Positions 8,979-38,431 of a stretch of 64,000 bases of DNA are shown in pieces. This DNA comes from Candidatus Sericytochromatia bacterium (GTDB lineage Bacteria > Cyanobacteriota > Sericytochromatia > UBA7694). The position numbers were made by a program, and so were the translations under genes. The notes beneath the pieces are model-generated. The model was not told the origin of the DNA. It made no database searches and was given only the letters and a program-made list of their open reading frames with translations. Positions within the stretch are counted from its first letter, which is position 1; every line of letters begins with the position of its first letter. The stretch spans positions 10,159 to 74,158 of the forward strand of contig JACYMC010000148.1 of the NCBI GenBank assembly GCA_015272195.1, read 5' to 3'.

Positions 8979-10056
8979 AGTGCGCGCCTGCCGGCGATTC
9001 TGACAGACAGCTGATGTCTCCCTGCAGCAAACCCAGCATCTTTTTGACGATGGTCAGGCCCAGGCCAATGGAGCTCTCGCCGGATGTCGGGGCCGCTGAG
9101 CGGGGGCCCTGCTGTTCAAAGAGATTCTCTTTTTCTTCGCAACTGAAGCCCGGGCCCTGATCCTCTATTTCGAGCTGCCACGTGTCAGCGTCAGCGCGTG
9201 ACCAGCGCACAAACACCCTGCCCCGGGGGGGCGAGTACTTCAGGGCATTTGAAATCAGATTGTCCAGCATTTGCTCAAAGGCCCCGCAGTCGCTTTCCAC
9301 CTGCAGATCAGCCGGCCCGCTCAGCTCAAACACAATTGTTTTATGCTGTGCCCAGTCGCGGTGTTGCTCCAGAACCTGATCGATCACGGTTGCCACAGTA
9401 AATGTGCTGATCTCAGGCTGACGCCGCCCCAGTAAAATGGTTTCGCGCCGCAAAAACTGGTGGATCATGCCCTCCATGCGCGTGGCGGCCAGCCACATGT
9501 TTTCAAGCCGGCGTTGCAGGCGCTCTGGCATTTCTCCCAGATGTTTCTGCAGGAACTCCAGCCCGGAAATCAGGACGGTCAGGGGCGTACGCAGGTCGTG
9601 AGAGACAATCTGCAATAACTCACTTTTGGAGCGGTTCAGCAGCTCCAGATGGGCGTTTTGCTCCAGAATCTGATCGCGGGCTTTTTTGAGCTCCAGGTGG
9701 GTGCGCACCCGTGCCCGCAGTTCCATGGGTTCCACAGGCTTGGTGATATAGTCCACTGCACCCAGTTCAAAGCCCTGTACAGCCTGCCGGGTGCTGGCAT
9801 TGGCGGTTAAAAAAATCACCGGTACACGTGCTGTCTGACGATCTGCTTTGAGGGCGCGACACACCGCAAAGCCATCCATACCCGGCATGTGCAAATCCAG
9901 TAAAATCAGATCAAAGGGCTTGTCCTGGGCTAGTTTTAAAGCCAGGGAGCCACTGCTGGCAAAACTGAGCTGATAACCTTCTTTTTTGAGCATGGAGGCC
10001 ACAATCTGAATGTTTTGCGGCAGATCATCCACAATCAGAATATGATCAGTCGGCAT
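8920..10056 (-). CDS. Hybrid response regulator/histidine kinase (N-terminal REC, HisKA, HATPase_c)
   Basis: 378 aa. ILIVDDLPQNIQIV...DLILLDLHMPGMDGF (receiver), then SHDLRTPLTVL (H-box), then an ATPase domain (GLGLTIVKKM). Confidence 0.85.
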   Translation of the reverse strand: MPTDHILIVDDLPQNIQIVASMLKKEGYQLSFASSGSLALKLAQDKPFDLILLDLHMPGMDGFAVCRALKADRQTARVPVIFLTANASTRQAVQGFELGAVDYITKPVEPMELRARVRTHLELKKARDQILEQNAHLELLNRSKSELLQIVSHDLRTPLTVLISGLEFLQKHLGEMPERLQRRLENMWLAATRMEGMIHQFLRRETILLGRRQPEISTFTVATVIDQVLEQHRDWAQHKTIVFELSGPADLQVESDCGAFEQMLDNLISNALKYSPPRGRVFVRWSRADADTWQLEIEDQGPGFSCEEKENLFEQQGPRSAAPTSGESSIGLGLTIVKKMLGLLQGDISCLSESPAGAHFRIRLPDRLQAKPADQHHA

Positions 10057-12002: not shown

Positions 12003-12039
12003 CAGATCAGCACCTCAGCCTGCGTCAGAAGCATTTTGA

Positions 12040-21562: not shown

Positions 21563-24500
21563 ATGCAGACCTGTCCGCAGCATCACCTTAAAACGGGTAA
21601 AATCTGCCGGGAGTGTGGCCATGTGTATCCCCTGGCAACAGGGGATACTTTTGGTGCACTGGAAGTCATTGAAAGAATACCTGGGCCTGCGCGGCTGCAT
21701 CTTTACCATTGCCGTCACCAGGATCAGGACTATGCGCTCTGGGAAGGGCTCGAAATTTACCAGCCCACTTACCGTGAGCAGATGATTCGTGTGCTGGACG
21801 CACAGCCTTTGTCCGGTGTGCCTGAAGTGCAGAATTTCTCGATTGATGATATGCCCAGTGAAGCCAATATTTTATATCTGTTGTACGACTGGGCTCCCTA
21901 TGCAAGCAGTCAGACGCTCGATAGCCTCAGTCAGCAGGCGGGTATTTTGCCGGCTGAGCAGATCCATCTGATCATGACGCAGCTGCTCGAACTTCTGGCT
22001 GAACTGGAGTTGCGCCAGTGGGTCTGGAACAGCTTTCACAGCCATTACCTTTATTTTGATCCAGAACAGCAGAAGGTTTTCCCAGGGCTGGCGTTTTATG
22101 CCCAGGAGTTGACCCCAGGTGCCATCAGTCCGGTGGTGTTTAAAGGTTTTTCACCGCCTGAGCAGATTCGCTCCGGCGAGGTGTTTCGGGAAACCGATCG
22201 CTTTGGCCTGGCCATGACGCTGGTGCAGTTGTGTACAGGTCTCTCGCCGGCGCTCTGGGCGCCTGATTTGCCCGGCTTCAAACGCTATCAGTACATCTGG
22301 GGCAAAGCGCTGATGGATTTTTATACCCAGCTGATGCAGCCGGTAGAACAGGTGCCCGCCAGCCGTCTGATCGACAGCTGGAAAGCCCTCAAAACAGATC
22401 TGCTGTCGCATAAAATCCTGCCGGCGATGCAGGAAGAGCTCCGGGTTTTTAATGCTGGTCTGCAGGCTTATACGGCTCAGGACCTCAATACGGCCCTCGA
22501 AAACTGGCTCAGTGTTCAGCGTGGAAGCCTGCACAATCCGCATCTGGCTGCTTATATTGCGCGCGCCCTCTGGAAAAAGCACCTGAAACATGAGGCCCTG
22601 GCCTGGTATGGCGAGGCCATCCGGCGTGAATCCCTGGGGCTGTTTTATCAGGAGGTGGGCGCCTGCTATGAAGCCGACAAGCAGACAGAACGGGCAGAGC
22701 GCGCTTACAGACAGGCCGTGACACGCATCCCCTATATGCCAGAGCCCTATAACGGCCTGGGTCGTTGTGCCAAAAACCGCCAGAATTTTAAAACCGCCAA
22801 ACTGTGTTTTGAAAAATCACTTCAGATTCATCCAACCTGGGAAGCCCGTGAAATGCTGGATGAAATCGCCGCCATTCAGTTTCCGACCACGCACAAAAGC
22901 AAACACCAGCCCCAGACCCCGACCCGGGCTTCTCTGCAAATTAACCTGACGCCAACCCTCTGGGAGCATTTTGATAAAAACAAAAATATTGCCGCCTACC
23001 GCGTCAAAGAAGTGGGAGAGCAAATTGGCCCTTATACCATTGACGCGGTTTTGCGCGAGCGCAATCTGGTCAAAGGCAACCGATCCTCTATTTATCGGGT
23101 GCATAACGCCGCTGCCGAATCGTTTTTTGTTAAGGAAGTGCTGCTGGATGTCTCTGGCAGCGGGACCTTTTACAAAGAAAAAGTTCTGTTGCAAAAGCTT
23201 AGTCATCCGGGTATTCCTCCCGTGCATGACAGCTTTGAAGCCAATGACTGTGGCTATCTGGTTCAGCCTTTTCTGCAAGTACCCTCTTTGGAGCAGTATC
23301 TGAATACCGAAGGCATTTTACCTGAAGCTGAAATCCGCGCGATTTTGACGCAGGGCTTGCAGCTGATTGCCTATCTGCAAAGCCAGCAGATCATTCATGC
23401 CGATATCAAACCCGAAAACCTGCACTGGGATGCTGCCGCCCAACAACTGTATCTGACCGACTTTGATATTGCCGTTGAGCACAAGCCCGCACGTCCCCAA
23501 AACAATTTTTCTGTGGGGGTGACGGCGGGTTTTGCTGCGCCTGAACAACTTGAAATCAAAGCGGTTAACCTCACAACAGATGTCTTTGCCCTCGCACTGA
23601 CCTGCCTCAATCTGAGCACAGGCTTAAATCCCAAACTCTTTTATCACCATCAGAAACGGGCTTACAGATCCTGTACCCAACTGCCGCAGTTGAGCCGGCC
23701 TTTTGGTAAATTTTTAGACAAACTGCTGACCTGCGATCTGAAACAACGCGCTCAGCGTTATCAGCAGGCCCAGGACCTGTTAGCTGAACTCCAGCAGGCC
23801 TTTGCCCAGGCTCCCAAAGTGCTGAGTAAAGCCCAGCGTGAAGTGGGGCATCTGATTCGGGAAGTGGCCCTTTGTCATCAGGATCCAGAGCGACTGGCTG
23901 CCATTGCAGCCCAGTTGCATCACAAGAGCCAGGACGCCAAAGTTGACTATCTGCTGGCTTTTGCTTATCTGGATCATCAACAGTGGGATGCGGCCTTTGT
24001 CGCCTACGATCGGGCCATGGCCAAAGATCCCCGCTGGCTGTTACCCTATTACGGCAAAAGTGCGGCCCTCGCCGATCAGGGCAAGCATTCTGATGCCATT
24101 GCCCTGCTTAAAAAAAGCCTTGATTACTGCAAAACCGAGAGCCTGCCTTACAGCTTGCTGGCCCGCTGCTTTATTGCCCAAAAAAAATTCAAACTGGCGC
24201 TGCAGCTTTATCAGAAAGCCTTGAAACTGGACCCCACCAACAAACAAATCTATCTCGATACCGCCCATTTGCACATCCGTCTGGGTGGATTTGAAAGCGC
24301 CCGCAAACTCTGTGAGCAGGCCCTGGAGTATGCCCCGACATCGGCCCGGGCCTTTCAGCTCCTGCAAATGATCTGCGGTATTCAGGAAAACTACCCCGCA
24401 GCCATTGAGTATGGTGAGCGGGCTGCCATGCTCAGACCCCATCGCATCAATGTTCAGTATGATCTGGGTTTCTCATATTTTCGCGCGGGTTACTATATCA

Positions 24501-24712
24501 AAGCGCTCAAACAATTTCAGCGCTGCCTGGAGTTGGATCCGGAGCATGTGCAAAGCCTTTATTATCTGGCTGACAGCTTACTGGAGCTGGGCCGTCTGGA
24601 AGAAGCGCGCAAATACTTTCAGAAAGTTCGTTTACATGCTGAACTGCAGGAAGCCGTCAAGCGTAAACTGGCGTTAATTGAGGACAGTCTATCTCAAAAC
24701 ACAGCAGCCTGA
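21563..24712 (+). CDS. Multidomain signalling protein: N-terminal Zn-ribbon, degenerate (pseudo)kinase domain, TPRs, active-looking Ser/Thr protein kinase domain, C-terminal TPR array
   Basis: 1049 aa. The ATG abuts the giant-protein TAA (TAAATG). CPQHH...CRECGH is a zinc ribbon. The first kinase-like domain lacks HRD/K. The second has VKEVLL (beta3 K), IIHADIKPENLHW (~23394-23417), LTDFDIAV, GFAAPEQL and DVFALALT. TPR-like repeats lie between the two kinase-like domains and at the C-terminus (e.g. AYLDHQQWDAAFVAYDRAMAKDP). Confidence 0.8.
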   Translation: MQTCPQHHLKTGKICRECGHVYPLATGDTFGALEVIERIPGPARLHLYHCRHQDQDYALWEGLEIYQPTYREQMIRVLDAQPLSGVPEVQNFSIDDMPSEANILYLLYDWAPYASSQTLDSLSQQAGILPAEQIHLIMTQLLELLAELELRQWVWNSFHSHYLYFDPEQQKVFPGLAFYAQELTPGAISPVVFKGFSPPEQIRSGEVFRETDRFGLAMTLVQLCTGLSPALWAPDLPGFKRYQYIWGKALMDFYTQLMQPVEQVPASRLIDSWKALKTDLLSHKILPAMQEELRVFNAGLQAYTAQDLNTALENWLSVQRGSLHNPHLAAYIARALWKKHLKHEALAWYGEAIRRESLGLFYQEVGACYEADKQTERAERAYRQAVTRIPYMPEPYNGLGRCAKNRQNFKTAKLCFEKSLQIHPTWEAREMLDEIAAIQFPTTHKSKHQPQTPTRASLQINLTPTLWEHFDKNKNIAAYRVKEVGEQIGPYTIDAVLRERNLVKGNRSSIYRVHNAAAESFFVKEVLLDVSGSGTFYKEKVLLQKLSHPGIPPVHDSFEANDCGYLVQPFLQVPSLEQYLNTEGILPEAEIRAILTQGLQLIAYLQSQQIIHADIKPENLHWDAAAQQLYLTDFDIAVEHKPARPQNNFSVGVTAGFAAPEQLEIKAVNLTTDVFALALTCLNLSTGLNPKLFYHHQKRAYRSCTQLPQLSRPFGKFLDKLLTCDLKQRAQRYQQAQDLLAELQQAFAQAPKVLSKAQREVGHLIREVALCHQDPERLAAIAAQLHHKSQDAKVDYLLAFAYLDHQQWDAAFVAYDRAMAKDPRWLLPYYGKSAALADQGKHSDAIALLKKSLDYCKTESLPYSLLARCFIAQKKFKLALQLYQKALKLDPTNKQIYLDTAHLHIRLGGFESARKLCEQALEYAPTSARAFQLLQMICGIQENYPAAIEYGERAAMLRPHRINVQYDLGFSYFRAGYYIKALKQFQRCLELDPEHVQSLYYLADSLLELGRLEEARKYFQKVRLHAELQEAVKRKLALIEDSLSQNTAA

Positions 24713-28845: not shown

Positions 28846-29266
28846 TGTGAACTGATCCTCCCTAAAACCTGTTTGCTGAAGCGCCAGATGTGTTTTGACG
28901 CCTCTGTTTTGATGTTTTCAACAAACAAGTGCCTGTCTCCTGAGCTGCTGCTTTTAATCTACACCATATTACAAGTCAGAAAAAAGCGTATGCAGATAGA
29001 TTGCTGCTTGTTGATTTGTAGGTGCTGAACTTGCTGTGCCGCCTGAATTTAATGTTGATTTAAAAAAAAAGCTTGTTTTTGTTGCGTAAAAGAAACAATG
29101 TTATTTCTTGATTAAAAACAATTTGTTTTTGCTGGCTCTCAGGCACGAACAAGCGCGAGAATAAGATAAGAAACACATCAAGGTCTCTCTTTGCAGAACC
29201 GCACATACCTGAAACGAATCGGCCGGAAACCCATAAGGTGTTGTTTGAAATGAAGGAGTCTGAAAA
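28846..29266. promoter_or_regulatory. 421-nt AT-rich divergent promoter region between the two beta-propeller lipoprotein operons
   Basis: An A9 run (~29055-29063), several TTGTTTTTG repeats, and AGGAG 7 nt before ATG 29267. Confidence 0.45.
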
Positions 29267-31282
29267 ATGAAAATCAAAACTTACGCCAAGCTTTCAGCCG
29301 GTCTGGCCGCCACCACTCTGATCAGTGTCAGCTGTAACTCCAGTGCGGTTAATACGCCCACCACAAACCTGGAGCCAGGTGCGACATCCAGTGCTGCCGC
29401 TGTACCGGTTAATCCCCTGCCCAGTACCGGTGGCAGCCAGGGTGTACAGACATCTCCCACTGGCAGTGAAAGCACTGAGCCCGGCCTGAGTTTACCTCTG
29501 GGTGTGAACCCCAGCACCTGTCGGCCTCTGGCAACGGTTTCAGGTCCTTCCGGCGAAATCAGAGGGTATCTTAAAATATCTACCAGTCTCTCCTGCGTTG
29601 AGGGCGTTAAGCGCATTCAGTATATGTACCGCCTGAAACCCGTCGGCGAATTCAATATGCTGGGTGGAGCCCACACCCAGGCAGACTCCAGCTACGAATT
29701 CAATACCAGCACCCTGCCCGATGGTGAATACGAAATCGTCAGTAAAATTGAGCTGGATAACGGTGATATCCTGATGAGTGCTGCCCTGACGCTCACCATT
29801 GCCAACACTCAGATTGTTTCCGTCAGCGGTGGTGGCGGTGGTGGCACACCCACAAACACACAGCCCACCAACCCGGATAATAATAACAATAATCCCCCAC
29901 CGCAGGGTCCTGAAGCGCCTCTGACCATGCCTGAAGGCAACGTTGTGGTGGGTGCCGGCAAAACATTCCAGGTTGCGTCAGGCACACCCAAATTTATGCT
30001 GGATTTTGGCGGCAGCGCTTCTTCCAGTCCGCTGGTCGATCCTAATGGCAATACCTTTTTTGTGGCAGGCAATCAGTTTCTGTCTTTTGCCAGCAATGGT
30101 GCGCAAAGCGGGTCGGTCAGCCTGAGCTACACCCACGAGCAGGGCCATACGGTGTCAGACTTCAATGTCACCGCGCCTGCGGCCATGTTTGTTAAAGATG
30201 GCCAAACCCTGATTTACTTTGGCGACAATTATGGCCGGATTCATGTGATGGATGTGACCGATCCCAGCAACCCGGTGCGCAAATTTAATCCGCCGCCGCG
30301 CCTTGATATCGCCGCTTATAACGATACGCTGATTGACCCCAATCTCGCCAGCAGTATTTTGCAGGTGGAGTATACGGCACCGGCTCTGGATTGCGATGGT
30401 AACATGTACATGAACTCCCGCGATCGCCGCTTGCTGAAGCTGAATCTTCAGACGGGTGAGATCGATACCGTTATGGACCGCCTCAGTGTACCGGGCACTT
30501 TCCCTGCAGAGCAAACCCGCAACACACGCTATGCCAGCCCGGTGATAGATGTCGAGAATAATCGTGTACTGACCGGATCTCAGTATGGTTTTCATGTCAT
30601 TAACACCAATAACTTCAATGAAAAGTACAGCTTTGTCCCCACGACTGCCTGTCGCTCGGATGGTCAGTGCGACTATGCCGCAGCGCCTGTTGATCAGGCC
30701 ATCAACTCTCTGCTGGCTTTTGATAACCAGGGCTTTGCCTATGTGATCAGCGAAGCCGGTACGGTGTTTAAGCTGGATGTCAGCAAACTGGTTCAGAATC
30801 AGGACCCTGTGGTCTGGAGTGTTTTTGTGGGTGACGGCGACAACTCACCTGTGATTGGCACCGATGGGACGATTTACGTGGCGTCTGAAGCCGGTACCCT
30901 GACAGCCATTTCACCGGGCGGTGAAATTCTTTTCCGTATTGGCCTCAGCGGAGTGGTTGAATTTGCCTCGCCCGTGATTGGTCAGGGCCCTGATGGTGAG
31001 GATATTGTTTATATCGGCACCGAAAACGGGATGGTTTACGGCTTTAACGGCAGCCATGTGGCTGAAGGGGGCGTGCCTTTCAAGCAGGAGTTTACCCGCG
31101 ATGTTCAGGGCCCCATTCGCAATCATTTGGCCATGGGGCCTGACGGCAGCCTGTATGCCAGTTCTCTTGACGGTCGGGTACACGCTATGTACTCCAAGAG
31201 CACGGGGCTTTCCAGCACCGCACAATGGGCCAAAACCCAAAAAGATGCTTATGGCTCCGGGCGCATTGGTTCATGTCCATAA
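29267..31282 (+). CDS. Secreted lipoprotein (671 aa) with a PQQ-like beta-propeller
   Basis: MKIKTYAKLSAGLAATTLISVSCNSS (lipobox VSC). A poly-Gly/Asn/Pro linker (GGGGGTPTNTQPTNPDNNNNNPPPQ). Repeated ...DGTIYVASEAGTLTAISPGGEILFRIGLSG... / GMVYGFNGS motifs typical of PQQ propeller blades. Confidence 0.65.
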   Translation: MKIKTYAKLSAGLAATTLISVSCNSSAVNTPTTNLEPGATSSAAAVPVNPLPSTGGSQGVQTSPTGSESTEPGLSLPLGVNPSTCRPLATVSGPSGEIRGYLKISTSLSCVEGVKRIQYMYRLKPVGEFNMLGGAHTQADSSYEFNTSTLPDGEYEIVSKIELDNGDILMSAALTLTIANTQIVSVSGGGGGGTPTNTQPTNPDNNNNNPPPQGPEAPLTMPEGNVVVGAGKTFQVASGTPKFMLDFGGSASSSPLVDPNGNTFFVAGNQFLSFASNGAQSGSVSLSYTHEQGHTVSDFNVTAPAAMFVKDGQTLIYFGDNYGRIHVMDVTDPSNPVRKFNPPPRLDIAAYNDTLIDPNLASSILQVEYTAPALDCDGNMYMNSRDRRLLKLNLQTGEIDTVMDRLSVPGTFPAEQTRNTRYASPVIDVENNRVLTGSQYGFHVINTNNFNEKYSFVPTTACRSDGQCDYAAAPVDQAINSLLAFDNQGFAYVISEAGTVFKLDVSKLVQNQDPVVWSVFVGDGDNSPVIGTDGTIYVASEAGTLTAISPGGEILFRIGLSGVVEFASPVIGQGPDGEDIVYIGTENGMVYGFNGSHVAEGGVPFKQEFTRDVQGPIRNHLAMGPDGSLYASSLDGRVHAMYSKSTGLSSTAQWAKTQKDAYGSGRIGSCP

Positions 31283-33150
31283 GCCCCACAAGCTTTGAAT
31301 GGGAAATTCTTTCCGCGCTCAACGATTTACACACCCGGACTTTTGAACGGGCCCGTGAAACCTGCGAGCGCATCCTTAAAGCAGTGCCGGGACATCCTTA
31401 TGCCACACACTTGCTGGGTCTGATTGCTGAACACCAGGACGCACCAGAAGAAGCCATTCAACTGATGGCCGAATCCATTGCTCTGAAGCCGGAAGAAGCC
31501 AGCTTTCACTTCAATCAGGGGCTTATCTATAGTAAGCAGGAGCGTTATGCTGAAGCTGCCAGGGCTTTTGATAATGCCATCACCCAGCAGCCAGATTACC
31601 TCACAGCCTATCTTCAGCTGGGTCTTGCCCAGCTGAAGAGTGGTGAACAAACAGCTGCTCAGGCGGCTTTTGCCTATATTCTGGATCGCGAACCCGATCC
31701 GGAACTGCAGGAATACCTCCGTCAAAGTGGTGCTTCTGAGGCCACTCTGCTTCATTATCAGGGAGTTCTCAGCAGTGCTGCTGGGAACGAAACGGCAGCA
31801 GAACAAGCCTATCAGCAAGCCCTGGCTCTGGAGCCTGATCATGCACGGGCGCAACTGGGCCTTGCCCGGCTTTATCTTAAGCAGGCCCGCTATCAGGCGG
31901 CCAGGGATCTGCTTGAAACGCACCTGACACAGCATGCTTCTGCTGACGCCCGGCATTTGCTGGCCCAGGTTCTGAACCAGCAGCAAGCGTACACACAGGC
32001 CCATCAGCTGCTTGTGACAGCACTGCAGCAAGCGCCCGACAATCTTCAGTTGCAGCACAGCCTGGCCGAAAACCTGCTTTATGCCCGGCAGCAGGAAGAC
32101 TGTCTCAACGCCTGGCAGGATGTGGCCTGCACAAAATGGCGCGATCTCAGCTTTTTGCGCACCTCAATGGATCAAATCCAGAAAGCTCCCAACGCCGGCT
32201 TTTTGTTTCATCAGGCGCTGATCGCAGATTATCAGACGGCTGAGAGCCTGTTGACGGCGCTGGAGCCTGAAAGCCAGGCTTACCTGCATTGTCAGGCCTT
32301 TAAAGATTTTTGTGGCCAGGCTCTCAACGAGCTCGATGTCTGGAAAACAACGCAGGCTCCCCTGGAAAATATCTGGGGGATTGAAGGCGTTGAGCAGGCC
32401 GAGCCTTTTGAAGCCATTCATATTGCTCTGTTTGAACGTCTTTGTTATTTGCGGGCCCATCTGCTGGATCAGCAGATTCCCCGCTGGTCTGCCTCAGAAA
32501 TGGCATCATCACAGCCTGTTCTGGCTTTGTCTTCAGCGGCCTGCCAAAAGCTTGAGCAGGACTTTCTGGCCTATTTTCCGCCTTTTGCCACTGCGGATCA
32601 TGTTTTGACAGACAGTGCGCTGAAGACCCTGCAGACTTTTTACGCCACCTTTCCGCTGGCGCATATTTTCTGGCGGCAGCCCTATACTCTCTATGCGGAC
32701 CTCAGTGATGGTATTTTGCACCCTTTACTCTGGCAGCTGAGCACGGAACTACAGCAGGCATTGCCCCAGTTGCTGCAGCAGCGTGGCCTGAAACAGCTCT
32801 GGCTGGAGCAGGTCTTTGCCGGCCAGTCAGAACGTGCCGACTATGCTGTGCAGTCCACCACAGAACATCTGCTCGTCAAACTGTGGTTGCAGGTCCAGCC
32901 CCAGCAGGAAGAAATCCGCATCTTTGATGTCAAACTGCCAGACTTTGAAAATGCTGCACAAACCCGGCAGCTGCTGTCAGATCAGCGCGGCATGCAGGCG
33001 CTGCTGAATCAGGCCAGAAAGGTTTATACTACCGCTTCAGCCGAAAATCGCCTGCTGCTGATGCAAGGCAATCTGCTGTATCAGCACCGTTTTGTGAATG
33101 CAGGCCAAAGCGCGGGGCTCTGCCTGAGCCTGCTTTTTGGTCCCGTCTAA
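31273..33150 (+). CDS. TPR-repeat protein (~626 aa)
   Basis: Start at ATG 31273 (MSISPTSFEW), overlapping the upstream stop by 10 nt. Multiple 34-aa TPR units (AIQLMAESIALKPEEASFHFNQGLIYSKQERYAEAARAFDNAITQQPDY...). Confidence 0.7.
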   Translation: MSISPTSFEWEILSALNDLHTRTFERARETCERILKAVPGHPYATHLLGLIAEHQDAPEEAIQLMAESIALKPEEASFHFNQGLIYSKQERYAEAARAFDNAITQQPDYLTAYLQLGLAQLKSGEQTAAQAAFAYILDREPDPELQEYLRQSGASEATLLHYQGVLSSAAGNETAAEQAYQQALALEPDHARAQLGLARLYLKQARYQAARDLLETHLTQHASADARHLLAQVLNQQQAYTQAHQLLVTALQQAPDNLQLQHSLAENLLYARQQEDCLNAWQDVACTKWRDLSFLRTSMDQIQKAPNAGFLFHQALIADYQTAESLLTALEPESQAYLHCQAFKDFCGQALNELDVWKTTQAPLENIWGIEGVEQAEPFEAIHIALFERLCYLRAHLLDQQIPRWSASEMASSQPVLALSSAACQKLEQDFLAYFPPFATADHVLTDSALKTLQTFYATFPLAHIFWRQPYTLYADLSDGILHPLLWQLSTELQQALPQLLQQRGLKQLWLEQVFAGQSERADYAVQSTTEHLLVKLWLQVQPQQEEIRIFDVKLPDFENAAQTRQLLSDQRGMQALLNQARKVYTTASAENRLLLMQGNLLYQHRFVNAGQSAGLCLSLLFGPV

Positions 33151-33151
33151 T

Positions 33152-33772
33152 ATGCTGCCTCCGGAAGCCCTGTCTGCTCAGGGACTGCTCTATGTCAAAC
33201 GGCAGTTTCTGACGCTGGCAGAATGCCAGCAGCTTGTTTCAGATCTGCATCAGTCAGAGCACGCCCCCTCTCTGACTTACTACGCACATTCAGGCCCTGT
33301 GGTGGATGCCTCTTATCGCAGCACCCGTGAGATCAACGTCTCCAGGCACGTGAGAGATCAGGTGGTGCAAAAGCTGATCGTGTTGCATCAGGAAATGCAG
33401 GACTATTTTCAGCTCCAGTTTGTGAATATGGAAGGCCTGCAGTTTCTGAGCTACCAACCGGGTGACTTTTTTAAAGCCCACCGCGATAACCACAGCAGCC
33501 CCAATCCGCTGGCTGAACGCAAGCTAAGTTTGTTGTTATTTCTTAATGCGCCAAAAGAAGCGCTGACAGACTCGCTGCCAGCGGAGCTTTATGACTACGA
33601 AGGCGGGCTGTTGGTGTTTTATCGCCCGTCACGCCGTCCGCCTTACCAGCCTGTAGGCATGCCTTTACAGGTGGCTCCGGGCATGCTGATCGGTTTTCGG
33701 CCGGACGTTTTGCACGAAGTCACCCCCGTGATTTCGGGGCAGCGCTTTACCATTGTGACCTGGCTGTCCTGA
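33152..33772 (+). CDS. Prolyl 4-hydroxylase-like Fe(II)/2OG oxygenase (P4Hc/PKHD-type)
   Basis: 206 aa. The ATG lies 1 nt after the TPR-gene stop. YQPGDFFKAHRDN (HxD), LLLFLN, YEGGLLVF, DVLHEV (distal His), RFTIVTW (2OG-binding Arg). Full-length match to the P4H-alpha C-terminal domain architecture. Confidence 0.8.
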   Translation: MLPPEALSAQGLLYVKRQFLTLAECQQLVSDLHQSEHAPSLTYYAHSGPVVDASYRSTREINVSRHVRDQVVQKLIVLHQEMQDYFQLQFVNMEGLQFLSYQPGDFFKAHRDNHSSPNPLAERKLSLLLFLNAPKEALTDSLPAELYDYEGGLLVFYRPSRRPPYQPVGMPLQVAPGMLIGFRPDVLHEVTPVISGQRFTIVTWLS

Positions 33773-33843
33773 CAAGTGCGTCCTTTCTCCGGTATGATAA
33801 CTACGAGCTGCTGAGAGTCTCCCCGACATTGTGGAGGTCATTC

Positions 33844-34764
33844 ATGGATTTGCACGTCTTACAACAGGTGAACCGTTCAGAGCATCTGCACGCCCGTCAC
33901 GAAAAAGCCCGACAGATTTACCAGCTCGGGCTGGAATATCTGAAGCGGGCCCAGGCTGATGAGCTGGACCGCGTTTTATTGCGCAATGCTGCCCGCTGCT
34001 TTGCGGCAGCTATTGAGCACAATCGTAAAGATGCCCGCCCTTTGTTGAAACAGGCTTATCTCTTTTTGCTGACGGGCAATGGACGCAAAGCTGTCAAATA
34101 TCTGCAGGAAGCCCAGCGACTGTTGCCACCAGAACACCCCGAACTGCAGCGTCTGCTGCAATATGCCCAGCGCCCTGCCCAGCAGAAAAAAAGCGCGCGT
34201 CACTCGCAACATACGGGACCCAACCCTGATAAGCTCAAAGCACTGTATCAAAAAACAGAGGCCGAGCTGGACCGCCTGATGGCCAGGGCTTACCGGGAAC
34301 TGCCGAATCTGCAGCCCACCTGGGCCAGTCCGGTCTGGCGTGGATACTGCAAACTGCAGCAGGAGTACGATGCAGCTTATCAAAAGCTGTGTGATCGTCT
34401 GGATCAGCTCTCACCCTACATGGATACCCAGCGTCTGGATCAGCAATTGCAAAAGCTCGAAATCAGCCTCAACCGCCTGGATGACGTCTGTGAGCACTCC
34501 GAAACCATGGTCAAACTGCGGCAGCGTATCGAAGCCGCACAACAGGCACTGGAACACAAGCTTACGCTGGCCCGCAGTGCCCAGTTGAGCGCCGAAGCGC
34601 TGCAACAGGCACTGACAGACGACGCCAACCTTTGTGATGAACTGGCTGATGAGCTGGATATGCTGGAAGGATCAGGTTTTAACGTGGCCGCACTGATACC
34701 GGGTTATGAAGCGTTGGTGAGCGCTTATCAGGCACTTGAACAGCACCAAGGAGGCATCGCATGA
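33844..34764 (+). CDS. Hypothetical coiled-coil protein
   Basis: GGAGG RBS 6 nt before ATG 33844 (the listed ORF begins at an upstream TTG, 33829). Alpha-helical, Gln/Leu/Arg-rich. No known motif. Confidence 0.55.
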   Translation: MDLHVLQQVNRSEHLHARHEKARQIYQLGLEYLKRAQADELDRVLLRNAARCFAAAIEHNRKDARPLLKQAYLFLLTGNGRKAVKYLQEAQRLLPPEHPELQRLLQYAQRPAQQKKSARHSQHTGPNPDKLKALYQKTEAELDRLMARAYRELPNLQPTWASPVWRGYCKLQQEYDAAYQKLCDRLDQLSPYMDTQRLDQQLQKLEISLNRLDDVCEHSETMVKLRQRIEAAQQALEHKLTLARSAQLSAEALQQALTDDANLCDELADELDMLEGSGFNVAALIPGYEALVSAYQALEQHQGGIA

Positions 34765-35273
34765 ATATCTCAGGCGCCAACCCCATGCAGAACCTGGCAC
34801 CGCTGCAGCAGCCCCAGGTTGTGCGCGCCCCCCAGGCTCCTCAGCAAACAGAAGCGCCCAAAGCCCCGCCGCCGGCTGAGCGACCTGTTCAGAGTCAGGC
34901 GGAAGCCCCCGTTCAGCCCACCGAAGACATGCAGGAATTGGTTGCCGATCTGAGCACAGAAGCCCTTGAAACAGATGTGCCCGAACTGGAAGGTGAAGAC
35001 ACAGGTCTGGACGATGAACCCCTGGAAGACCTGGACGATCTGGCAGAAGACCTGGGCGTGGAAATTGAGGAGAGCGAAGAAGCTGAAGGCGAAGTAGAAG
35101 AGCTCTCTGAAGCGGATGAAGAAGACGAGGTGGAAGAAGACGAAGAGGATGAGCTCGGCGATAAACCTGAAGGTGAAGGCCACGGACAGGCCGAAGCAGA
35201 TGATGAAGAGGAAGATGAAGACGAGGACGAAGAAACAGAAGCTCACGCTGAAGGTGACGATACCAGACCGTGA
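34761..35273 (+). CDS. Highly acidic (Glu/Asp-rich) small protein
   Basis: 170 aa. ATGA overlap with the upstream gene. The C-terminal half is nearly all E/D (EEDEVEEDEEDELGD...DDEEEDEDEDEETEAH). The N-terminus is Pro/Gln-rich. Confidence 0.55.
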   Translation: MNISGANPMQNLAPLQQPQVVRAPQAPQQTEAPKAPPPAERPVQSQAEAPVQPTEDMQELVADLSTEALETDVPELEGEDTGLDDEPLEDLDDLAEDLGVEIEESEEAEGEVEELSEADEEDEVEEDEEDELGDKPEGEGHGQAEADDEEEDEDEDEETEAHAEGDDTRP

Positions 35274-36313
35274 GTAAGCAGATTGATCTGGCTATGCCTG
35301 CCGATCTGCCGCAGCTTCAGGCCATCTTACGCCAGGTTCCCGTGGGCTCAGCCAGTCAGGCCTATACCTTGCGGCGTGAACCTGACTTTTTTGGCCTGCT
35401 GAATTTTCAGGGCTTGGACCATCGCATTCTGGTGGCGCGTTCTTCAGCAGAATCTGAGCGCATTGTCGGGCTGATGAGTGTGATTCTGGAGCGGGTCTAT
35501 CTGGAGGGCCAGGTGCGTCAGGTGGCTTATACAGGGGATTTACGTTTGCTGCCCGAAGCCCGCGGCCACGGCCTGGCAGATGCTCTGATGCAGGAGGCCA
35601 TTGTTCAGGCCAGACAAATGGGCGGCGAAGATATCCCGGTATTTACCTGTGTGGCCACAGACAACCCGGCCGGTCTGCGCAAAAATCAGAAGCTGGCTGC
35701 CAGTATGGGGTTGACCATGCACGAATTGACCCGCCTGAATGCCTGTTTTTTTACGGCTTTGCCCTTGCTGCAGCGCAAGCCAGCGGGTCTCAGGCTGCGC
35801 TGTGCTGAAGCCCAGGATATGCCGGCCATGGCAGCCCTCTGGGCTGAGCTGGCCCCCCGACGCCACCTCAGCCGGGCCTATGCCGACTGGTCGACAGATA
35901 CTCACTTCCCGCCTTTGCGGCCACAGGATTGGCTGCTGGCAGAGTACAAGGGCCGGCTGATCGGATTTATGGGGCTCTGGCAGCAGCAGGCCCTGCGCCA
36001 GGTGCATTTATTGCAGCTGCCTTTGCCCCTGCGCCTGCTGGGCCAAAGCCCCTCGGGCCCTTTAAAACTGGCCCATGCGGTGCACCTTTGCCTGCAGCCG
36101 GCTTATCGCAACTATTTGCCTGAACTGGTCAAACACGGCCTGCAAATCATTCGCCAGCGGGGCGCGCTGGTTCTGGCGATGGCTATGGATACGCAAGATC
36201 CGTTGACCGAGTGGCTACCTATGTCATTGGGGCGTACTTCTGAGTTGCGCCTGCTGGGATCCTGTCTGCCGGATCCCGCTTATCCTTATCATGTGGAGAC
36301 GGCACTTGGCTAA
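35270..36313 (+). CDS. Tandem GNAT-fold N-acetyltransferase
   Basis: GTG start overlapping the upstream stop (GTGA). RGHGLADALMQEAIVQARQMG resembles GNAT motif A. A second GNAT-like half lies in the C-terminal region. Confidence 0.6.
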   Translation: MSKQIDLAMPADLPQLQAILRQVPVGSASQAYTLRREPDFFGLLNFQGLDHRILVARSSAESERIVGLMSVILERVYLEGQVRQVAYTGDLRLLPEARGHGLADALMQEAIVQARQMGGEDIPVFTCVATDNPAGLRKNQKLAASMGLTMHELTRLNACFFTALPLLQRKPAGLRLRCAEAQDMPAMAALWAELAPRRHLSRAYADWSTDTHFPPLRPQDWLLAEYKGRLIGFMGLWQQQALRQVHLLQLPLPLRLLGQSPSGPLKLAHAVHLCLQPAYRNYLPELVKHGLQIIRQRGALVLAMAMDTQDPLTEWLPMSLGRTSELRLLGSCLPDPAYPYHVETALG

Positions 36314-37127
36314 TCACTACGCGCTTTTGCAATCGGTTTACTTTAAACTTCCTCCGACTGAAGTACCGGGTGAGGCCGGGGCCCTGGCTAATCCCCCTGT
36401 GCAAAGCATTATACCAGCCATCCAGCGCCTGGGCGCGTTATGCAAAATGGGCGTGATGGGTGCAGACATTGCCCTGTTGCTGCTGCGCTTTTCAAAGCTG
36501 ATTCTGAATCCCAACGATATCTCCCCGATTTTTAAAGGCAGCTCTTTTTTAAAGCACAAAAGTTTTCAGCTCTCGCTGCAGACCTTTTATGAAGATCCTG
36601 AAACAGCAGAGTTGCTGCGCACGCGCTATCTTTCAGAAGCACCTTATGATCTTGATGTTCTGCTGCAGCTGCCGCCAGACACCCTGGGCCATGCCTTTGC
36701 CAGTCATATGCGCAGCAATCAACTGGAAGTGGTTTTTTACCCGCCGCTCGAAAAAACCGACGATGACGATATTGCCTATCTGCGTCGCCGGGCCCGCCAG
36801 ACGCACGATATTCATCATGTGGTGCTGGGCTATCCGGCCATTGATGTGGGCGAGATGGCGATTTCTGCTTTTTATCTCTCGCAGCACCGGGTGCCGCTTT
36901 CGGCTTTGCTGATTGGTTTTGGTTTTTTATACACTATTTTGCGTGAACCCCAGCGCATTGAAGAGCTGATTAAAGCCATTGAAACCGGCTGGCAGGCCGG
37001 TCAGCAGGCCCGCCGCCTGCTGGGCATCCGCTGGGAGGAGTACTGGGAAACCCCCCTGGAAACGCTGCGCCAGGAGCTGCGTATTCCGCTGCCGCCGCCA
37101 ATTTTTACGCAAGGAGCCAAGTCATGA
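36291..37127 (+). CDS. Coq4-family protein (ubiquinone biosynthesis Coq4 homologue; putative metal-binding HDxxH)
   Basis: 278 aa. RRRARQTHDIHHVVLGYPAIDVGEMAISAFYLSQ matches the Coq4 HDxxH-(x)n-E signature. Overlaps the GNAT gene by 23 nt. Confidence 0.6.
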   Translation: MWRRHLANHYALLQSVYFKLPPTEVPGEAGALANPPVQSIIPAIQRLGALCKMGVMGADIALLLLRFSKLILNPNDISPIFKGSSFLKHKSFQLSLQTFYEDPETAELLRTRYLSEAPYDLDVLLQLPPDTLGHAFASHMRSNQLEVVFYPPLEKTDDDDIAYLRRRARQTHDIHHVVLGYPAIDVGEMAISAFYLSQHRVPLSALLIGFGFLYTILREPQRIEELIKAIETGWQAGQQARRLLGIRWEEYWETPLETLRQELRIPLPPPIFTQGAKS

Positions 37128-38431
37128 GCAATCTGTCCATTGCCCGTCTGACGCCACCGACAAACTATTCTGCAGGTCGTCCTGAGCCAGCCAGCCCGGC
37201 TGACAGGTCCACATCCCAGGCGCCTGCCCGTGAAGCTGTCAGCGATAAAAGCGCCGTGTCGGCCGCTCAGGGCACAGCCCCGGCCCAGCTGCCCTGGGTA
37301 GATGGGGTCACCGCCTTACAGCCTGCCAGTTCCAGTCAGGTCAAAGCGGCGATTCAAAACGCGATTGAACAAAGCTTTGCTCGTGTCCCGGATCGCCCAG
37401 GTGAAAATCGCCATCAGCTCAACGCCCGCCTGCAGGCGGATGCGGGTGCGGGGGCCAAAGGCGCCCGACCCCATTACAATGGGGCGGATATCATTGTGAT
37501 TGCTTTTGAGGGTACCGGGGCTTTTGAGCCCCGTCAGGCGCCGGTTATGCAGGCCACGGTTGAAATTCTGCGTCAGCAGGGCCTGGGGTTGAGCGGTACA
37601 GCAAGCGCTCTGAATTATCTGGTGGACCAGGCGCTCGACAGCAAAACCGGTCAGACCGGAAAATGGTCCGGCCTGGCTGCCGGTCCGCTCGAAAGCCTGC
37701 TGAACGATGATGCGCTGGCGGCACAGACCCAGTGGTTCAGTTTTGCCTCTGAAGAGTTTGAGGTCCTGGCCGGGGACAATCCCACCGAGCAATTGGCACC
37801 CAGACAATTGCTGGCTGAAATCCAGGGCAGCCTTAGCGGTCAGACACCGGGCATTTCACAGGCGCTGAAGGCTGTTCAGGCCCTGCGCGAGCAGGCCCAG
37901 GCCCAGGGCAAAACACCCCGCTTTGTGATTGTCAGCCACAGCAGCGGCGGGCGCAGCGCGGTCAAGTTTATGGAGCAGGCCAAAGCCTTGCCTGCCATCA
38001 ACGGCCAGGCGTTTAACAGTCCGCTGCTCTTTAGCATTGACCCTGTGCGTGAGGCCCATGAAGCGTTGGGCGAGGCCCTGAGTGATGTCTACCTGCGTGC
38101 GGGTACCCAGCACAATCTCAACCGTCTGCGCGGCTTGCTGGGCTGGGCGCCGGCTCCCGTCAAACATCCTGCCGTACAGTCTCAGCCTCAGCCCGAAAGC
38201 CTCTATAAACCCGGAAACGCCCAGAAGGCCATCAATTTTTATCAGCGTCAGGATCGCGAAGGGCTGAAAATGGATGCCGTTCGCTTTGGCATTCACGGCA
38301 GCCCGCTGGCGCGGGGTGAAAACATTGAGATCAAAGGGGTGGGCAGTGCCGGACACGGAGAAATTGCCTACCAGCAGCAGGTGACTAATCGCTTTCTGGC
38401 CGAGTTGCGCAAACTGACGCCCGGACCCTGA
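37124..38431 (+). CDS. Putative alpha/beta-hydrolase (GxSxG nucleophile motif)
   Basis: 435 aa. ATGA overlap. FVIVSHSSGGRSA (GxSxG, ~37931-37950). The N-terminal 100 aa are low-complexity Ala/Pro/Ser-rich. No signal peptide is evident. Confidence 0.45.
   Translation: MSNLSIARLTPPTNYSAGRPEPASPADRSTSQAPAREAVSDKSAVSAAQGTAPAQLPWVDGVTALQPASSSQVKAAIQNAIEQSFARVPDRPGENRHQLNARLQADAGAGAKGARPHYNGADIIVIAFEGTGAFEPRQAPVMQATVEILRQQGLGLSGTASALNYLVDQALDSKTGQTGKWSGLAAGPLESLLNDDALAAQTQWFSFASEEFEVLAGDNPTEQLAPRQLLAEIQGSLSGQTPGISQALKAVQALREQAQAQGKTPRFVIVSHSSGGRSAVKFMEQAKALPAINGQAFNSPLLFSIDPVREAHEALGEALSDVYLRAGTQHNLNRLRGLLGWAPAPVKHPAVQSQPQPESLYKPGNAQKAINFYQRQDREGLKMDAVRFGIHGSPLARGENIEIKGVGSAGHGEIAYQQQVTNRFLAELRKLTPGP

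Follow-up and report, generated by a model that had tools for sequence, protein, structure and literature searches.

Layout of the locus

The analysed window, a 64-kb stretch of DNA from a Candidatus Sericytochromatia MAG (a non-photosynthetic lineage related to cyanobacteria), carries eight co-directional ORFs (g1-g8) on its + strand at positions 29267-38431, the run studied here, with the following features.

29267..31282, + strand: g1, 671-aa predicted lipoprotein with a C-terminal beta-propeller (ORF, Pfam, lipobox)
31273..33150, + strand: g2, 625-aa TPR protein (Pfam TPR families; start as in the sister contig L046)
33152..33772, + strand: g3, 206-aa 2OG-Fe(II) oxygenase of the prolyl-4-hydroxylase / PKHD-hydroxylase type (PF13640, PDB 3dkq)
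33769..33798, + strand: sigma-70-like promoter candidate (CTGACA, 18-nt spacer, TATGAT)
33844..34764, + strand: g4, 306-aa TPR-plus-helical protein, first cassette gene (family profile, synteny)
34761..35273, + strand: g5, 170-aa acidic protein, second cassette gene (composition, orthologue alignment)
35270..36313, + strand: g6, 347-aa tandem-GNAT acyltransferase (PF00583, AlphaFold2, Foldseek)
36306..37127, + strand: g7, 273-aa Coq4-family protein, cassette core (PF05019, motif, PDB matches)
37124..38431, + strand: g8, 435-aa divergent alpha/beta-hydrolase (invariant residues, AlphaFold2)
33844-37127, + strand: conserved cassette g4-g7 (seven distinct loci)

A preliminary description of this DNA counted nine genes; the ORFs number eight, and the tandem GNAT is a single 347-aa protein with two GNAT-fold halves. 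Its account of the ORFs, of the metal motif of g7 and of the domain content, the latter in agreement with our Pfam profile search of g1-g8, holds, whereas the overlaps of 4-23 nt that it placed between successive genes are present at five junctions only, i.e. g1/g2 (10 nt, ATG 31273 against the g1 stop), g4/g5 (ATGA), g5/g6 (GTGA), g6/g7 and g7/g8 (ATGA). At g6/g7 the overlap is 23 nt if ATG 36291 is used and 8 nt with TTG 36306, the favoured start as it agrees with both the homologue alignment and the length of the NCBI protein (273 aa). The g2/g3 junction is start-dependent, since the 14-nt overlap requires TTG 33137 while ATG 33152, equivalent to the gene call for g3 in L046, leaves a 1-nt gap, and g3/g4 do not overlap but are separated by 71 nt (33773-33843). 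Abutting or overlapping neighbours are frequent across the 64-kb window (e.g. at 10056, 21562/3, 50537, 52624/5, 56092/3 and 59703-6), and the junctions hence point to tight packing and possible translational coupling rather than to a property specific to this locus. Strict stoichiometric co-expression, as previously suggested, is not demonstrated by them, as 4-nt overlaps do not imply fixed stoichiometry.

The g3/g4 gap region harbors the best promoter-like site of the region, with 10/12 consensus matches, although the scan by itself is weak evidence, yielding 7 such sites against 4.7 expected. Both hexamers are identical in L046, where the gap region is ~90% identical as compared to 83% for the whole locus, and in L049, L039 and L041 a non-coding gap immediately precedes g4. 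In addition, a GGAGG motif is located 7 nt upstream of the g4 ATG. A transcript covering g4-g8 could begin at this site, and the cassette g4-g7 probably possesses its own promoter in this gap. No convincing terminator was detected within the g1-g8 run (13 terminator-like sites against 10.9 expected). The cassette may be transcribed as a single unit.

Conservation of the cassette and its neighbours

The full eight-gene order was found again only in the sister contig L046 (83% nucleotide identity), where a divergence of only ~17% means that synteny is expected by descent. Relative to this contig, g1 and g2 diverge faster (74-75% amino acid identity) than g4-g8 (82-92%), and g7 shows the highest identity of all eight (91.9%). 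The four-gene cassette g4-g7, on the other hand, is shared by seven distinct loci with unrelated flanks, namely the window, L046, L039, L006, L007, L008/L041 and L049, and g1, g2, g3 and g8 are missing from the flanks in the five more distant ones. The locus is composite, consisting of a conserved cassette and lineage-specific neighbours, and the single functional unit assumed earlier does not hold, as only g4-g7 stay together in distant relatives and g1-g3 and g8 accompany them in L046 alone. The evolutionary core of the cassette is the GNAT-Coq4 pair (g6-g7). In 19 distinct Sericytochromatia/Blackallbacteria loci, Coq4 is immediately preceded by g6 in the same orientation, the pair stands alone in most cassette-type and Blackallbacteria loci, e.g. 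next to dnaA, and many lineages carry g6-Coq4 without g4 and g5.

These comparisons bear on the proposal of the first description, that all eight (or nine) genes of 29267-38431 constitute one operon serving a single pathway at fixed stoichiometry. The uniform gene direction, the short or negative spacers, the lack of a convincing internal terminator and the complete order in L046 agree with such an arrangement, and g3 could be an analogue of the 2OG-type oxygenase (Cupin_8/JmjC) encoded near Coq4 in L016, L020, L023 and L060. We nevertheless regard it as quite unlikely given the shallow divergence of L046, the absence of the outer genes from the flanks in the five distant loci, the fact that the L049 genome carries its g8 homologue on another contig, the 71-nt gap with its conserved promoter-like site, and the nature of g1, which reads as an exported lipoprotein while the other products have no discernible signal peptide.

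Outside the conserved cassette, g1, g2 and g3 are lineage-specific neighbours. The signal peptide of g1 ends in ...LISVSC with a lipobox, as read directly from the sequence, and its propeller matches in Pfam are BamB-like and weak (PQQ_2 at 29.5 bits, cut-off 27.6; Beta-prop_ACSF4 weak); elsewhere it adjoins a Coq4 locus only in L046, with an orthologue of 74.7% amino acid identity. TPR repeats occupy residues ~20-300 of g2, which hits numerous TPR families in Pfam (TPR_16 among them, at 9e-20) and begins at an ATG (31273) also called in L046, while its C-terminal ~325 residues have neither detectable relatives nor a significant PDB match. The g3 product scores 46.5 bits against 2OG-FeII_Oxy_3 (PF13640, cut-off 27) and matches the PKHD-type hydroxylase 3dkq at 3.5e-5, with HRD/LHEVTPV aligned to HID/LHQVTPV of the template.

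Downstream, g8 is likewise a lineage-specific addition to the cassette. Residues 1-61 are disordered and are followed by a highly divergent alpha/beta-hydrolase, for which all Pfam matches are sub-threshold. The residues invariant across 36 homologues include a putative Ser-Asp-His triad (HSSGG 272-276, D306, GHG 410-412) and an FEGTG loop (128-132), and in Foldseek the AlphaFold2 model (pLDDT 81.5) resembles lipases, esterases and thioesterase domains only weakly (TM < 0.31). The family ranges over Sericytochromatia, Melainabacteria, Myxococcota and Halobacteriovoraceae; its members do not adjoin Coq4 in L048 or the P0191 locus, and that of the cassette-bearing L049 genome sits beside TetR and P450 genes on its separate contig.

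Proteins of the cassette

The g4 protein carries two to three TPR repeats towards its N-terminus, while its C-terminal part is helical and has a conserved D..CD..AD..D / EGSG motif. At full length it matches no Pfam family, and the match of its family profile to TPR proteins is confined to positions ~15-137. The family forms 259 clusters in a representative library, with lengths of ~300-320 aa throughout, and each Sericytochromatia genome has several paralogues. In L006, L007, L008, L039, L046 and L049 an orthologue precedes g5-g6-Coq4. Presumably, g4 is a non-catalytic adaptor. Its neighbour g5 is strongly acidic (38% Asp+Glu, computed pI ~4), of low complexity, probably disordered, and without Pfam or NCBIfam match, but has a conserved central motif, ..VPEP..E.TGL..E.L..LD..AEDLGVE.E.SE, in six aligned orthologues, a seventh being present in L049; neither a conserved Lys nor a Gly at position 2 is seen in the alignment. 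We note that a purely metabolic model leaves the co-conservation of these two non-enzymatic proteins unexplained.

For g6, GNAT Acetyltransf_1 (PF00583) is matched at 42.7 bits (cut-off 20.7) over residues 50-134, and the N-terminal half holds the acyl-CoA motif R98-G-x-G101-x-A. The AlphaFold2 model (pLDDT 90.6) identifies the tandem GNATs MAB_4324 (7Q3A, 7e-15), glucosamine N-acetyltransferase (5KF1), the mycothiol synthase MshD (1OZP) and Legionella VipF (6WQC) in Foldseek, whereas the best TM-scores, 0.65-0.66, are to N-myristoyltransferases (NMTs). All of these, including the eukaryotic NMTs, share with g6 two GNAT folds per chain of ~350 aa and a single recognisable acyl-CoA motif each (Foldseek probability 1.0, TM 0.5-0.66), yet sequence identity is only 12-16%, and g6 differs by its C-terminus, [YF]HxE..G-stop, strictly conserved in 22 distinct orthologues, and by its genomic tie to Coq4 in a family found almost only in Sericytochromatia. 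By TM-score the nearest structural neighbours of g6 are enzymes that act on proteins, the N-myristoyltransferases, which accords equally well with a protein substrate.

It is conceivable that the cassette is a protein-acylation system, in which an NMT-like g6 acylates g5 or another client presented by g4, while the hydrophobic tunnel of g7 serves to handle or deliver the lipid donor. NMTs carry their acyl-CoA motif in the N-terminal half and use their own C-terminal carboxylate as catalytic base; both the motif position and the invariant terminal Gly of g6 recall these features, in line with the TM-scores and with the fact that seven loci keep two non-enzymatic proteins, the TPR adaptor and the acidic disordered protein, together with the enzymes. 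However, g6 matches no NMT Pfam family, Foldseek ranks small-molecule tandem GNATs (MAB_4324, glucosamine N-acetyltransferase, MshD) first by E-value, g5 offers neither a conserved Lys nor a Gly at position 2, and g6-Coq4 occurs without g4 and g5 in many lineages and inside small-molecule lipid enzyme clusters, which renders this explanation unlikely.

Assignment of g7, 100% identical to the NCBI protein IGS03_11035 (273 aa), to the Coq4 family, as originally noted, is borne out by PF05019 (104 bits, cut-off 22.9) and by matches of its family profile to PDB 3MSQ (2e-49) and 6E12 (Alr8543, 5e-41). The metal site described earlier as HDIHH...E is present as HDxxH-x11-E (H167, D168, H171 and E183 in the 273-aa numbering) and is invariant in 26 homologues. 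With 6E12 (from Nostoc), 3MSQ ('putative ubiquinone biosynthesis protein') and eukaryotic COQ4, g7 shares PF05019, this motif and the core length. Unlike these, the cassette and Blackallbacteria clade is extended at the N-terminus by ~45-60 aa that include a conserved YFK motif, an extension missing from the lipid-cluster clade, and unlike cyanobacterial Coq4-like proteins and eukaryotic COQ4, g7 has a tandem GNAT as constant partner and no quinone-pathway neighbours. The same Coq4 clade is present in Bdellovibrionota and Myxococcota, which are menaquinone users.

Quinones, lipid clusters and the proposed function

The lack of a ubiquinone context stated previously is supported: no UbiA/Coq2, UbiD/X, UbiE/G/H or Coq7 families, and no other ubi/coq/plq partners such as a prenyltransferase, ring methyltransferase or hydroxylase, were found by Pfam in the scanned window ORFs (most large ORFs, excepting six between 52.6 and 63.3 kb) or in eight annotated related loci. 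Since quinone genes in bacteria frequently lie dispersed, their lack nearby counts only weakly against a quinone role. An alternative is synthesis of a true benzoquinone (ubiquinone- or plastoquinone-like), in which g7 would remove the carboxyl group of a prenylated hydroxybenzoate as a C1 or oxidative decarboxylase, with the other pathway genes elsewhere in the genome. As a clear PF05019 member with an intact catalytic/metal motif, g7 would suit the role, and decarboxylation of a lipid-tailed hydroxybenzoate is exactly that of eukaryotic COQ4 (PMC10680789; PMC7615680). However, in contrast to this quinone role, the host lineage is reported to lack Plq homologues (PMC12998194) and to carry the futalosine menaquinone pathway (PMC11874023). 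Together with the lack of partner genes in the scanned ORFs and annotated loci, the occurrence of the clade in menaquinone users and the constant association with a GNAT and fatty-acid-type enzymes, this makes a benzoquinone product very unlikely.

The latter association is evident from relatives. In L015, L017, L043, L053 and L054, g6 and Coq4 are located inside one lipid-type cluster with KASIII (PRK07204), ATP-grasp (PRK06849), an OleD-like reductase, MBL, an F390-synthetase-related protein (TIGR02304), FAAL, ACP, MMPL and a lipoprotein. Over other Sericytochromatia and Bdellovibrionota as a whole, the cluster of KASIII, ATP-grasp, reductase, MBL and F390-synthetase-related genes around Coq4 may or may not include FAAL, ACP and MMPL. 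Compact forms are KASIII-ATPgrasp-Coq4-GNAT (L057) and AMP-ligase-GNAT-Coq4-MMPL (L051). In Bdellovibrionota, Coq4 again has these KASIII, ATP-grasp, reductase and MBL genes as its neighbours, and g6 joins the Coq4-bearing cluster in Sericytochromatia. None of the KASIII/FAAL/ACP/MMPL genes occurs within the 64-kb window and the pair often stands alone, so the lipid link of g6-g7 is by homology to other lineages only. The related loci, not the window, unite a thiolase-fold KASIII, the OleD-like reductase, ATP-dependent ligases, a fatty acyl-AMP ligase, ACP, MMPL transporter and lipoprotein, and are in this respect analogous to OleABCD-type head-to-head fatty-acid condensation and to mycobacterial FAAL-ACP-MmpL-lipoprotein export of lipids. 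Nonetheless, the reductase reaches 262 bits against the OleD model, under the equivalog cut-off of 580, OleB and OleC orthologues are replaced by an MBL lactonase-like protein, ATP-grasp and the F390-synthetase-related protein, and Coq4 plus tandem GNAT has no counterpart in either system.

Based on these data, we tentatively propose, at somewhat less than even confidence, that within this composite locus the g6-g7 module of the cassette tailors a lipid-tailed, fatty-acid-derived carboxylic acid, and not ubiquinone or plastoquinone. The Coq4-like g7 would bind the hydrophobic tail, and its metal site would act on the carboxylic acid, most likely by decarboxylation, by analogy to animal COQ4, a Zn-dependent C1 decarboxylase in vitro (PMC7615680). 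The g6 GNAT would move an acyl group from acyl-CoA or acyl-ACP to the same metabolite or a precursor. In the present lineage, g8, as a divergent serine hydrolase beside the cassette, may add an esterase or thioesterase step, and the g3 2OG oxygenase and g1 lipoprotein, similarly placed outside the conserved system, may contribute as well. Of the earlier interpretation, the Coq4 protein with its metal site, the absence of a ubiquinone context and, in general terms, a pathway that modifies a small molecule and includes an acyltransferase are thus retained, in contrast to the single unit, the strict stoichiometry and the supposed rarity of Coq4 outside a ubiquinone context, since bacterial homologues are reported to be widespread (PMC5714133). 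The informative point is not the presence of Coq4 per se, but that it is constantly paired with a tandem GNAT and linked to a cluster of lipid genes.

Gene arrangement and the conserved g4-g7 cassette

The Coq4-like, GNAT and hydrolase proteins of the window are 100% identical to Candidatus Sericytochromatia MAG proteins at NCBI (IGS03 locus tags), Sericytochromatia being a non-photosynthetic sister class of Cyanobacteria. The preliminary description listed nine genes here; the ORF count is eight (g1 to g8), with the tandem GNAT being a single protein, and the domain calls made in that description hold.

Genes of the run and the gene that follows it (window positions)
29267-31282, + strand: g1, predicted lipoprotein, 671 aa
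31273-33150, + strand: g2, TPR protein, 625 aa
33152-33772, + strand: g3, predicted oxygenase, 206 aa
33844-34764, + strand: g4, TPR-plus-helical protein, 306 aa
34761-35273, + strand: g5, acidic protein, 170 aa
35270-36313, + strand: g6, tandem GNAT protein, 347 aa
36306-37127, + strand: g7, Coq4-like protein, 273 aa
37124-38431, + strand: g8, putative hydrolase, 435 aa
38453-39313, convergent to the run and next after g8: KsgA-like gene

An unbroken chain of overlaps had also been claimed. The junction sequences uphold it for g1/g2 (10 nt), g4/g5 (ATGA), g5/g6 (GTGA), g7/g8 (ATGA) and g6/g7, the last overlapping by 8 nt with a TTG start of g7 or by 23 nt with an upstream ATG; the TTG start is preferred, since it agrees with the homologue alignment and with the length of the NCBI protein (273 aa). 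The chain is interrupted, however, between g3 and g4 by a 71-nt spacer, the largest within the run, and a g2/g3 overlap requires a TTG start of g3 at 33137, while the gene call in L046, the sister contig of the locus, is equivalent to the ATG at 33152. As overlapping or abutting neighbours are frequent across the whole window, such junctions represent ordinary tight packing.

Because an exact look-up of the window Coq4-like protein, with both starts, matched no contig, gene context was taken from homologues: about 60 loci encoding relatives of g7, g6 or g8 were gathered from GTDB genomes, metagenomes and exact-protein look-ups, and homologues of all eight window proteins were mapped onto them. 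The complete eight-gene order recurs only in L046, where the synteny is expected by descent given the 83% nucleotide identity; amino acid identities to L046 are 74-75% for g1 and g2 and 82-92% for g4-g8, with the Coq4-like protein highest at 91.9%. The order g4-g5-g6-g7 is common to seven distinct loci (the window, L046, L039, L006, L007, L008/L041 and L049), the flanks of which are unrelated and include condensin-like genes, two-component systems and SRP54, and 19 distinct Sericytochromatia/Blackallbacteria loci have g6 immediately 5' of the Coq4-like gene and in the same orientation. Neither g1, g2 nor g3 was found in the flanks of mapped loci other than L046. In the genome carrying L049, the g8 homologue is located on a separate contig, beside TetR and P450 genes. 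A 462-aa gene after the Coq4-like gene in L041 was considered as a counterpart of g8 and is unrelated, its sequence resembling that of a membrane protein.

The best sigma-70-like match of the region falls in the g3/g4 gap (CTGACA, 18-nt spacer, TATGAT; 10/12), and L046 retains both hexamers unaltered, with an identity of about 90% across the gap. The distant cassettes begin with g4 behind a non-coding gap. Terminator-like hairpins are not enriched inside the run (13 versus 10.9 in shuffled sequence). An 8-bp GC-rich hairpin (GGGATCC...GGATCCC) at 36255-36278, in the 3' end of g6 and some 30 nt ahead of the start of g7, was flagged as terminator-like, such matches being no commoner than in shuffled sequence.

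One of the main rival explanations holds that all eight genes serve a single pathway, in keeping with their co-directionality and short spacers. Against this, gene order beyond close relatives is kept only for g4-g7, and the promoter-like site lies inside the run. The same restriction of synteny counts against the nine-gene unit claimed at first. We propose instead that the locus consists of a conserved g4-g7 cassette, probably under a promoter of its own as judged from the site retained in L046 and from the position of g4 behind a gap in distant cassettes, joined by lineage-specific g1-g3 upstream and g8 downstream. The obvious candidate for a regulatory region of g1-g3 is the 420-nt AT-rich intergenic stretch at 28846-29266, with long A and T runs, between g1 and a divergent 882-aa ORF.

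Elsewhere in the window, a 2095-aa ORF without a Pfam match at 1e-5 (15275-21562, + strand) abuts a gene for a 1049-aa protein with a Ser/Thr protein kinase domain and C-terminal TPRs (21563-24712, + strand). Another five large ORFs likewise lack a Pfam match at 1e-5; two of these are transcribed divergently from g1. Scanning the window for Rfam families and tRNAs gave no matches.

Large ORFs without a Pfam family
12040-14973, - strand: 977 aa
24713-26191, - strand: 492 aa
26197-28845, - strand: 882 aa
42305-43801, - strand: 498 aa
43913-44842, - strand: 309 aa

The Coq4-like protein and the tandem GNAT

The catalytic role of COQ4, C1 decarboxylation in ubiquinone synthesis, was assigned only in 2023-2024 and its mechanism is still debated; to our knowledge, no bacterial COQ4 homologue has a known function. 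The window protein g7 matches the Coq4 family (PF05019) with 104 bits (cut-off 22.9), the alignment spanning positions 48-220 of the 221 in the profile. The metal-binding residues anticipated by the preliminary description are present on alignment: the HDxxH-x11-E motif, in the definition of PMC10680789 and PMC7615680, is made up of H167, D168, H171 and E183, none of which varies among 26 homologues. The family profile also matches the cyanobacterial Coq4-like structures 3MSQ (2e-49) and 6E12/Alr8543 (5e-41), and in the latter a lipid-like ligand occupies a hydrophobic tunnel beside the metal site (Pelosi et al., PMC10680789). COQ4 rescues C1 decarboxylation and hydroxylation defects of E. coli (Pelosi et al., PMC10680789), and animal COQ4 is a Zn-dependent C1 decarboxylase in vitro, the activity of which is abolished by mutation of the motif (Nicoll et al., PMC7615680). 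Bacterial homologues have been reported as widespread and uncharacterised (PMC5714133).

A second main rival, a cryptic benzoquinone pathway to which this Coq4 family member would belong, has to be weighed against the gene content. No UbiA/Coq2, UbiD/X, ring methyltransferase or hydroxylase families were found in the Pfam tables of the scanned window ORFs, which cover most of the large ORFs except six located at 52.6-63.3 kb, and these families were likewise absent from eight Pfam-annotated related loci. In addition, a published survey recorded no plastoquinone (Plq) homologues in Sericytochromatia (PMC12998194), which have been assigned the futalosine menaquinone pathway (PMC11874023). On these grounds the non-quinone context of g7, as originally noted for this locus, appears real as far as can be seen in the scanned ORFs, the related loci and the surveys.

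Its partner g6 matches the GNAT family Acetyltransf_1 (PF00583; 42.7 bits, cut-off 20.7), and the acyl-CoA motif (Q/R-x-x-G-x-G/A) is found in the N-terminal half as R98-G-x-G101-x-A, with R98 and G99 invariant and G101 at least 90% conserved among homologues. An AlphaFold2 model based on 21 homologues (pLDDT 90.6) aligns end to end, over some 350 columns, with the tandem GNATs 7Q3A, 5KF1 and 1OZP and with N-myristoyltransferases (NMTs), so the modelled polypeptide comprises two GNAT folds. The best Foldseek E-values were obtained for MAB_4324, a glucosamine N-acetyltransferase, MshD and VipF, and the best TM-scores, 0.65-0.66, for NMTs.

In NMTs the C-terminal carboxylate serves as the catalytic base. 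The conserved end of g6 recalls this use: all 22 distinct orthologues terminate in [YF]HxE[ILMT][AGS][LMWV]G followed at once by the stop codon (window 36250-36313). As every orthologue ends at the same conserved C-terminus, this suggests a functional terminal carboxylate or tail, as in NMTs. It is here that the third main rival, a protein-acylation system, is best considered. The fold and the fixed tail recall an enzyme that acylates proteins, yet identity to NMTs is 13-15% and g6 has no match to the NMT Pfam families at E-values up to 0.1. We therefore do not claim NMT membership, which the sequence does not support, and liken g6 to a tandem GNAT.

Proteins encoded around the enzyme pair

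No Pfam family was matched by g4 or g5, and no paralogues of either were found within the window. Clustering at 50% identity divides the g4 family (P0197-P0346) into at least 259 clusters, whose proteins are uniformly about 300-320 aa long. Sericytochromatia genomes have several paralogues each, and all named members that were looked up belong to this class; no relatives turned up in metagenomes scanned with a narrower g4 alignment. The g4 protein has two to three N-terminal TPRs, and its C-terminal region is helical and carries the conserved motif D..CD..AD..D / EGSG. The g5 protein is acidic (computed pI about 4; 34-40% Asp+Glu) and of low complexity, with a conserved central motif and with no conserved Lys among its orthologues. 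We infer that both are accessory or scaffolding proteins.

For g8 the best profile match is Hydrolase_4, at 17.4 bits and thus below the cut-off of 27, and a search with 36 members of its family returned only scattered sub-threshold Pfam matches, leaving the family without a Pfam model. Its 82 homologues (P0115-P0196) occur in Sericytochromatia, Melainabacteria, Myxococcota and Halobacteriovoraceae, an odd phyletic spread shared with the Coq4 clade. Among 36 homologues the elements HSSGG, D306-P, G-H411-G and FEGTG are invariant or nearly so and include those of a putative catalytic triad. The AlphaFold2 model (pLDDT 81.5, N-terminal 61 residues disordered) weakly resembles thioesterase, lipase and esterase folds, and its Foldseek matches, all alpha/beta hydrolases or thioesterases, have TM-scores below 0.31. 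Most simply, g8 is a putative divergent serine hydrolase. Some family members have hydrophobic, signal-peptide-like N-termini; that of the window protein is Pro/Ala/Gln-rich and disordered.

Of the upstream genes, g1 carries a lipoprotein signal, as read from sequence, and weak BamB/PQQ propeller matches, and g2 has many TPR matches in its N-terminal half and no PDB relative found for its C-terminal half. The g3 protein matches 2OG-FeII_Oxy_3 (PF13640; 46.5 bits, cut-off 27) and has the HxD...H iron triad, HRD and LHEVTPV aligning with the corresponding residues of 3DKQ, which identifies it by sequence as a 2OG-Fe(II) oxygenase of the P4H/PKHD type. A defence-system reading was dropped, as the PADLOC models matched g3 only as a generic 2OG protein and g2 only through a TPR artefact below threshold.

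A recurrent lipid-type cluster and the proposed role of the enzyme pair

In one Sericytochromatia lineage (L015, L017, L043, L053 and L054), the Coq4-like gene is followed by an MMPL transporter and faces a divergent operon. A g6-type tandem GNAT gene, together with one for a lipoprotein, completes the cluster; in L043 this lipoprotein is encoded upstream of the GNAT, and comparison showed no relationship to g4 or g5.

Genes of the L043-type divergent operon
Fatty acyl-AMP ligase (FAAL)
ACP
KASIII (PRK07204, above cut-off)
ATP-grasp protein (PRK06849, just below the 406-bit cut-off)
OleD-like reductase (262 bits, below cut-off)
MBL lactonase-like protein
F390-synthetase-related protein (TIGR02304, above cut-off)

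Compact forms are KASIII-ATPgrasp-Coq4-GNAT in L057 and AMP-ligase-GNAT-Coq4-MMPL in L051. In Bdellovibrionota (L020/L045, L023/L061, L024, L027 and L060), KASIII, ATP-grasp, reductase and MBL genes flank the Coq4-like gene, together with a JmjC/Cupin_8 oxygenase. Further arrangements are Cupin_8-Rieske-GNAT-Coq4 in L016 and, in L004, esterase-Coq4 with a small GNAT on the opposite strand and then MMPL.

Spans of the recurrent cluster (positions on each contig)
L043: 341-12920
L045: 6041-11724
L023: 10001-17179
L057: 7500-11618
L051: 18-6429

In some Sericytochromatia and in Bdellovibrionota, the KASIII cluster (KASIII, ATP-grasp, OleD-like reductase, MBL lactonase-like and F390-synthetase-related genes) always goes with a Coq4-like gene, with FAAL, ACP, MMPL, lipoprotein, JmjC/Cupin_8 and Rieske genes as optional additions. 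In L060, two tandem Coq4-like paralogues (713-2238), about 50% identical to the Bacteriovoracaceae protein, adjoin Cupin_8, MBL and OleD-like reductase genes. In Blackallbacteria-type loci (L009-L014, about 10880-12247), the GNAT-Coq4 pair has no biosynthetic neighbours and is directly followed by a 455-aa ORF, apparently dnaA to judge by its N-terminal sequence. A tblastn search of the window with the L043 and L045 cluster proteins found no KASIII-cluster genes, the only matches being g6, g7 and an unrelated AMP-ligase at 45035-46708. No description of the g4-g7 cassette or of a Coq4-containing KASIII cluster was found in the searchable literature.

The best explanation of the locus is a cassette of TPR protein, acidic protein, tandem GNAT and Coq4-like protein in which the enzyme pair would tailor a lipid-like metabolite. 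By analogy, g6 and g7 may act on a lipid-tailed, fatty-acid-derived acid, because the association with the cluster recurs in other lineages and the chemistry of COQ4 is known. The small-molecule pathway suggested in the preliminary description is plausible, but not as one nine-gene unit. All readings beyond gene content and conservation are inferential.

A bolder proposal, which we consider unlikely as it stands, is that GNAT-Coq4 and the KASIII cluster, with or without FAAL, ACP and MMPL, make and export an undescribed class of fatty-acid-derived envelope or signalling lipids. Such lipids would come from menaquinone-only bacteria (Sericytochromatia, Bdellovibrionota), the decarboxylation step would fall to the Coq4-like enzyme, and the product might be a phenolic or quinone-like lipid formed without a shikimate/UbiA route; in the lineage of the window, g4 and g5 would organise g6 and g7 into a complex. 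If this were true, lipid tailoring would be the ancestral task of the COQ4 family, and its recruitment to ubiquinone synthesis in eukaryotes would have come later.

In conclusion, a bacterial Coq4 clade is identified in organisms reported to lack benzoquinone pathways; its nearly constant partner is one specific tandem GNAT, and its genes lie repeatedly inside a fatty-acid-type cluster. Three families without a whole-protein Pfam family are flagged, namely the TPR-helical g4 and acidic g5 proteins, co-conserved with the enzyme pair, and the g8 hydrolase, located beside the pair in the lineage of the window. The label 'ubiquinone biosynthesis protein COQ4', current in JGI annotations, should be avoided for these genes. 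As a lead toward the function of bacterial COQ4 homologues the system is of good experimental value, and it provides a testable handle on the role of the COQ4 family outside ubiquinone synthesis and on the possible origin of the eukaryotic enzyme.
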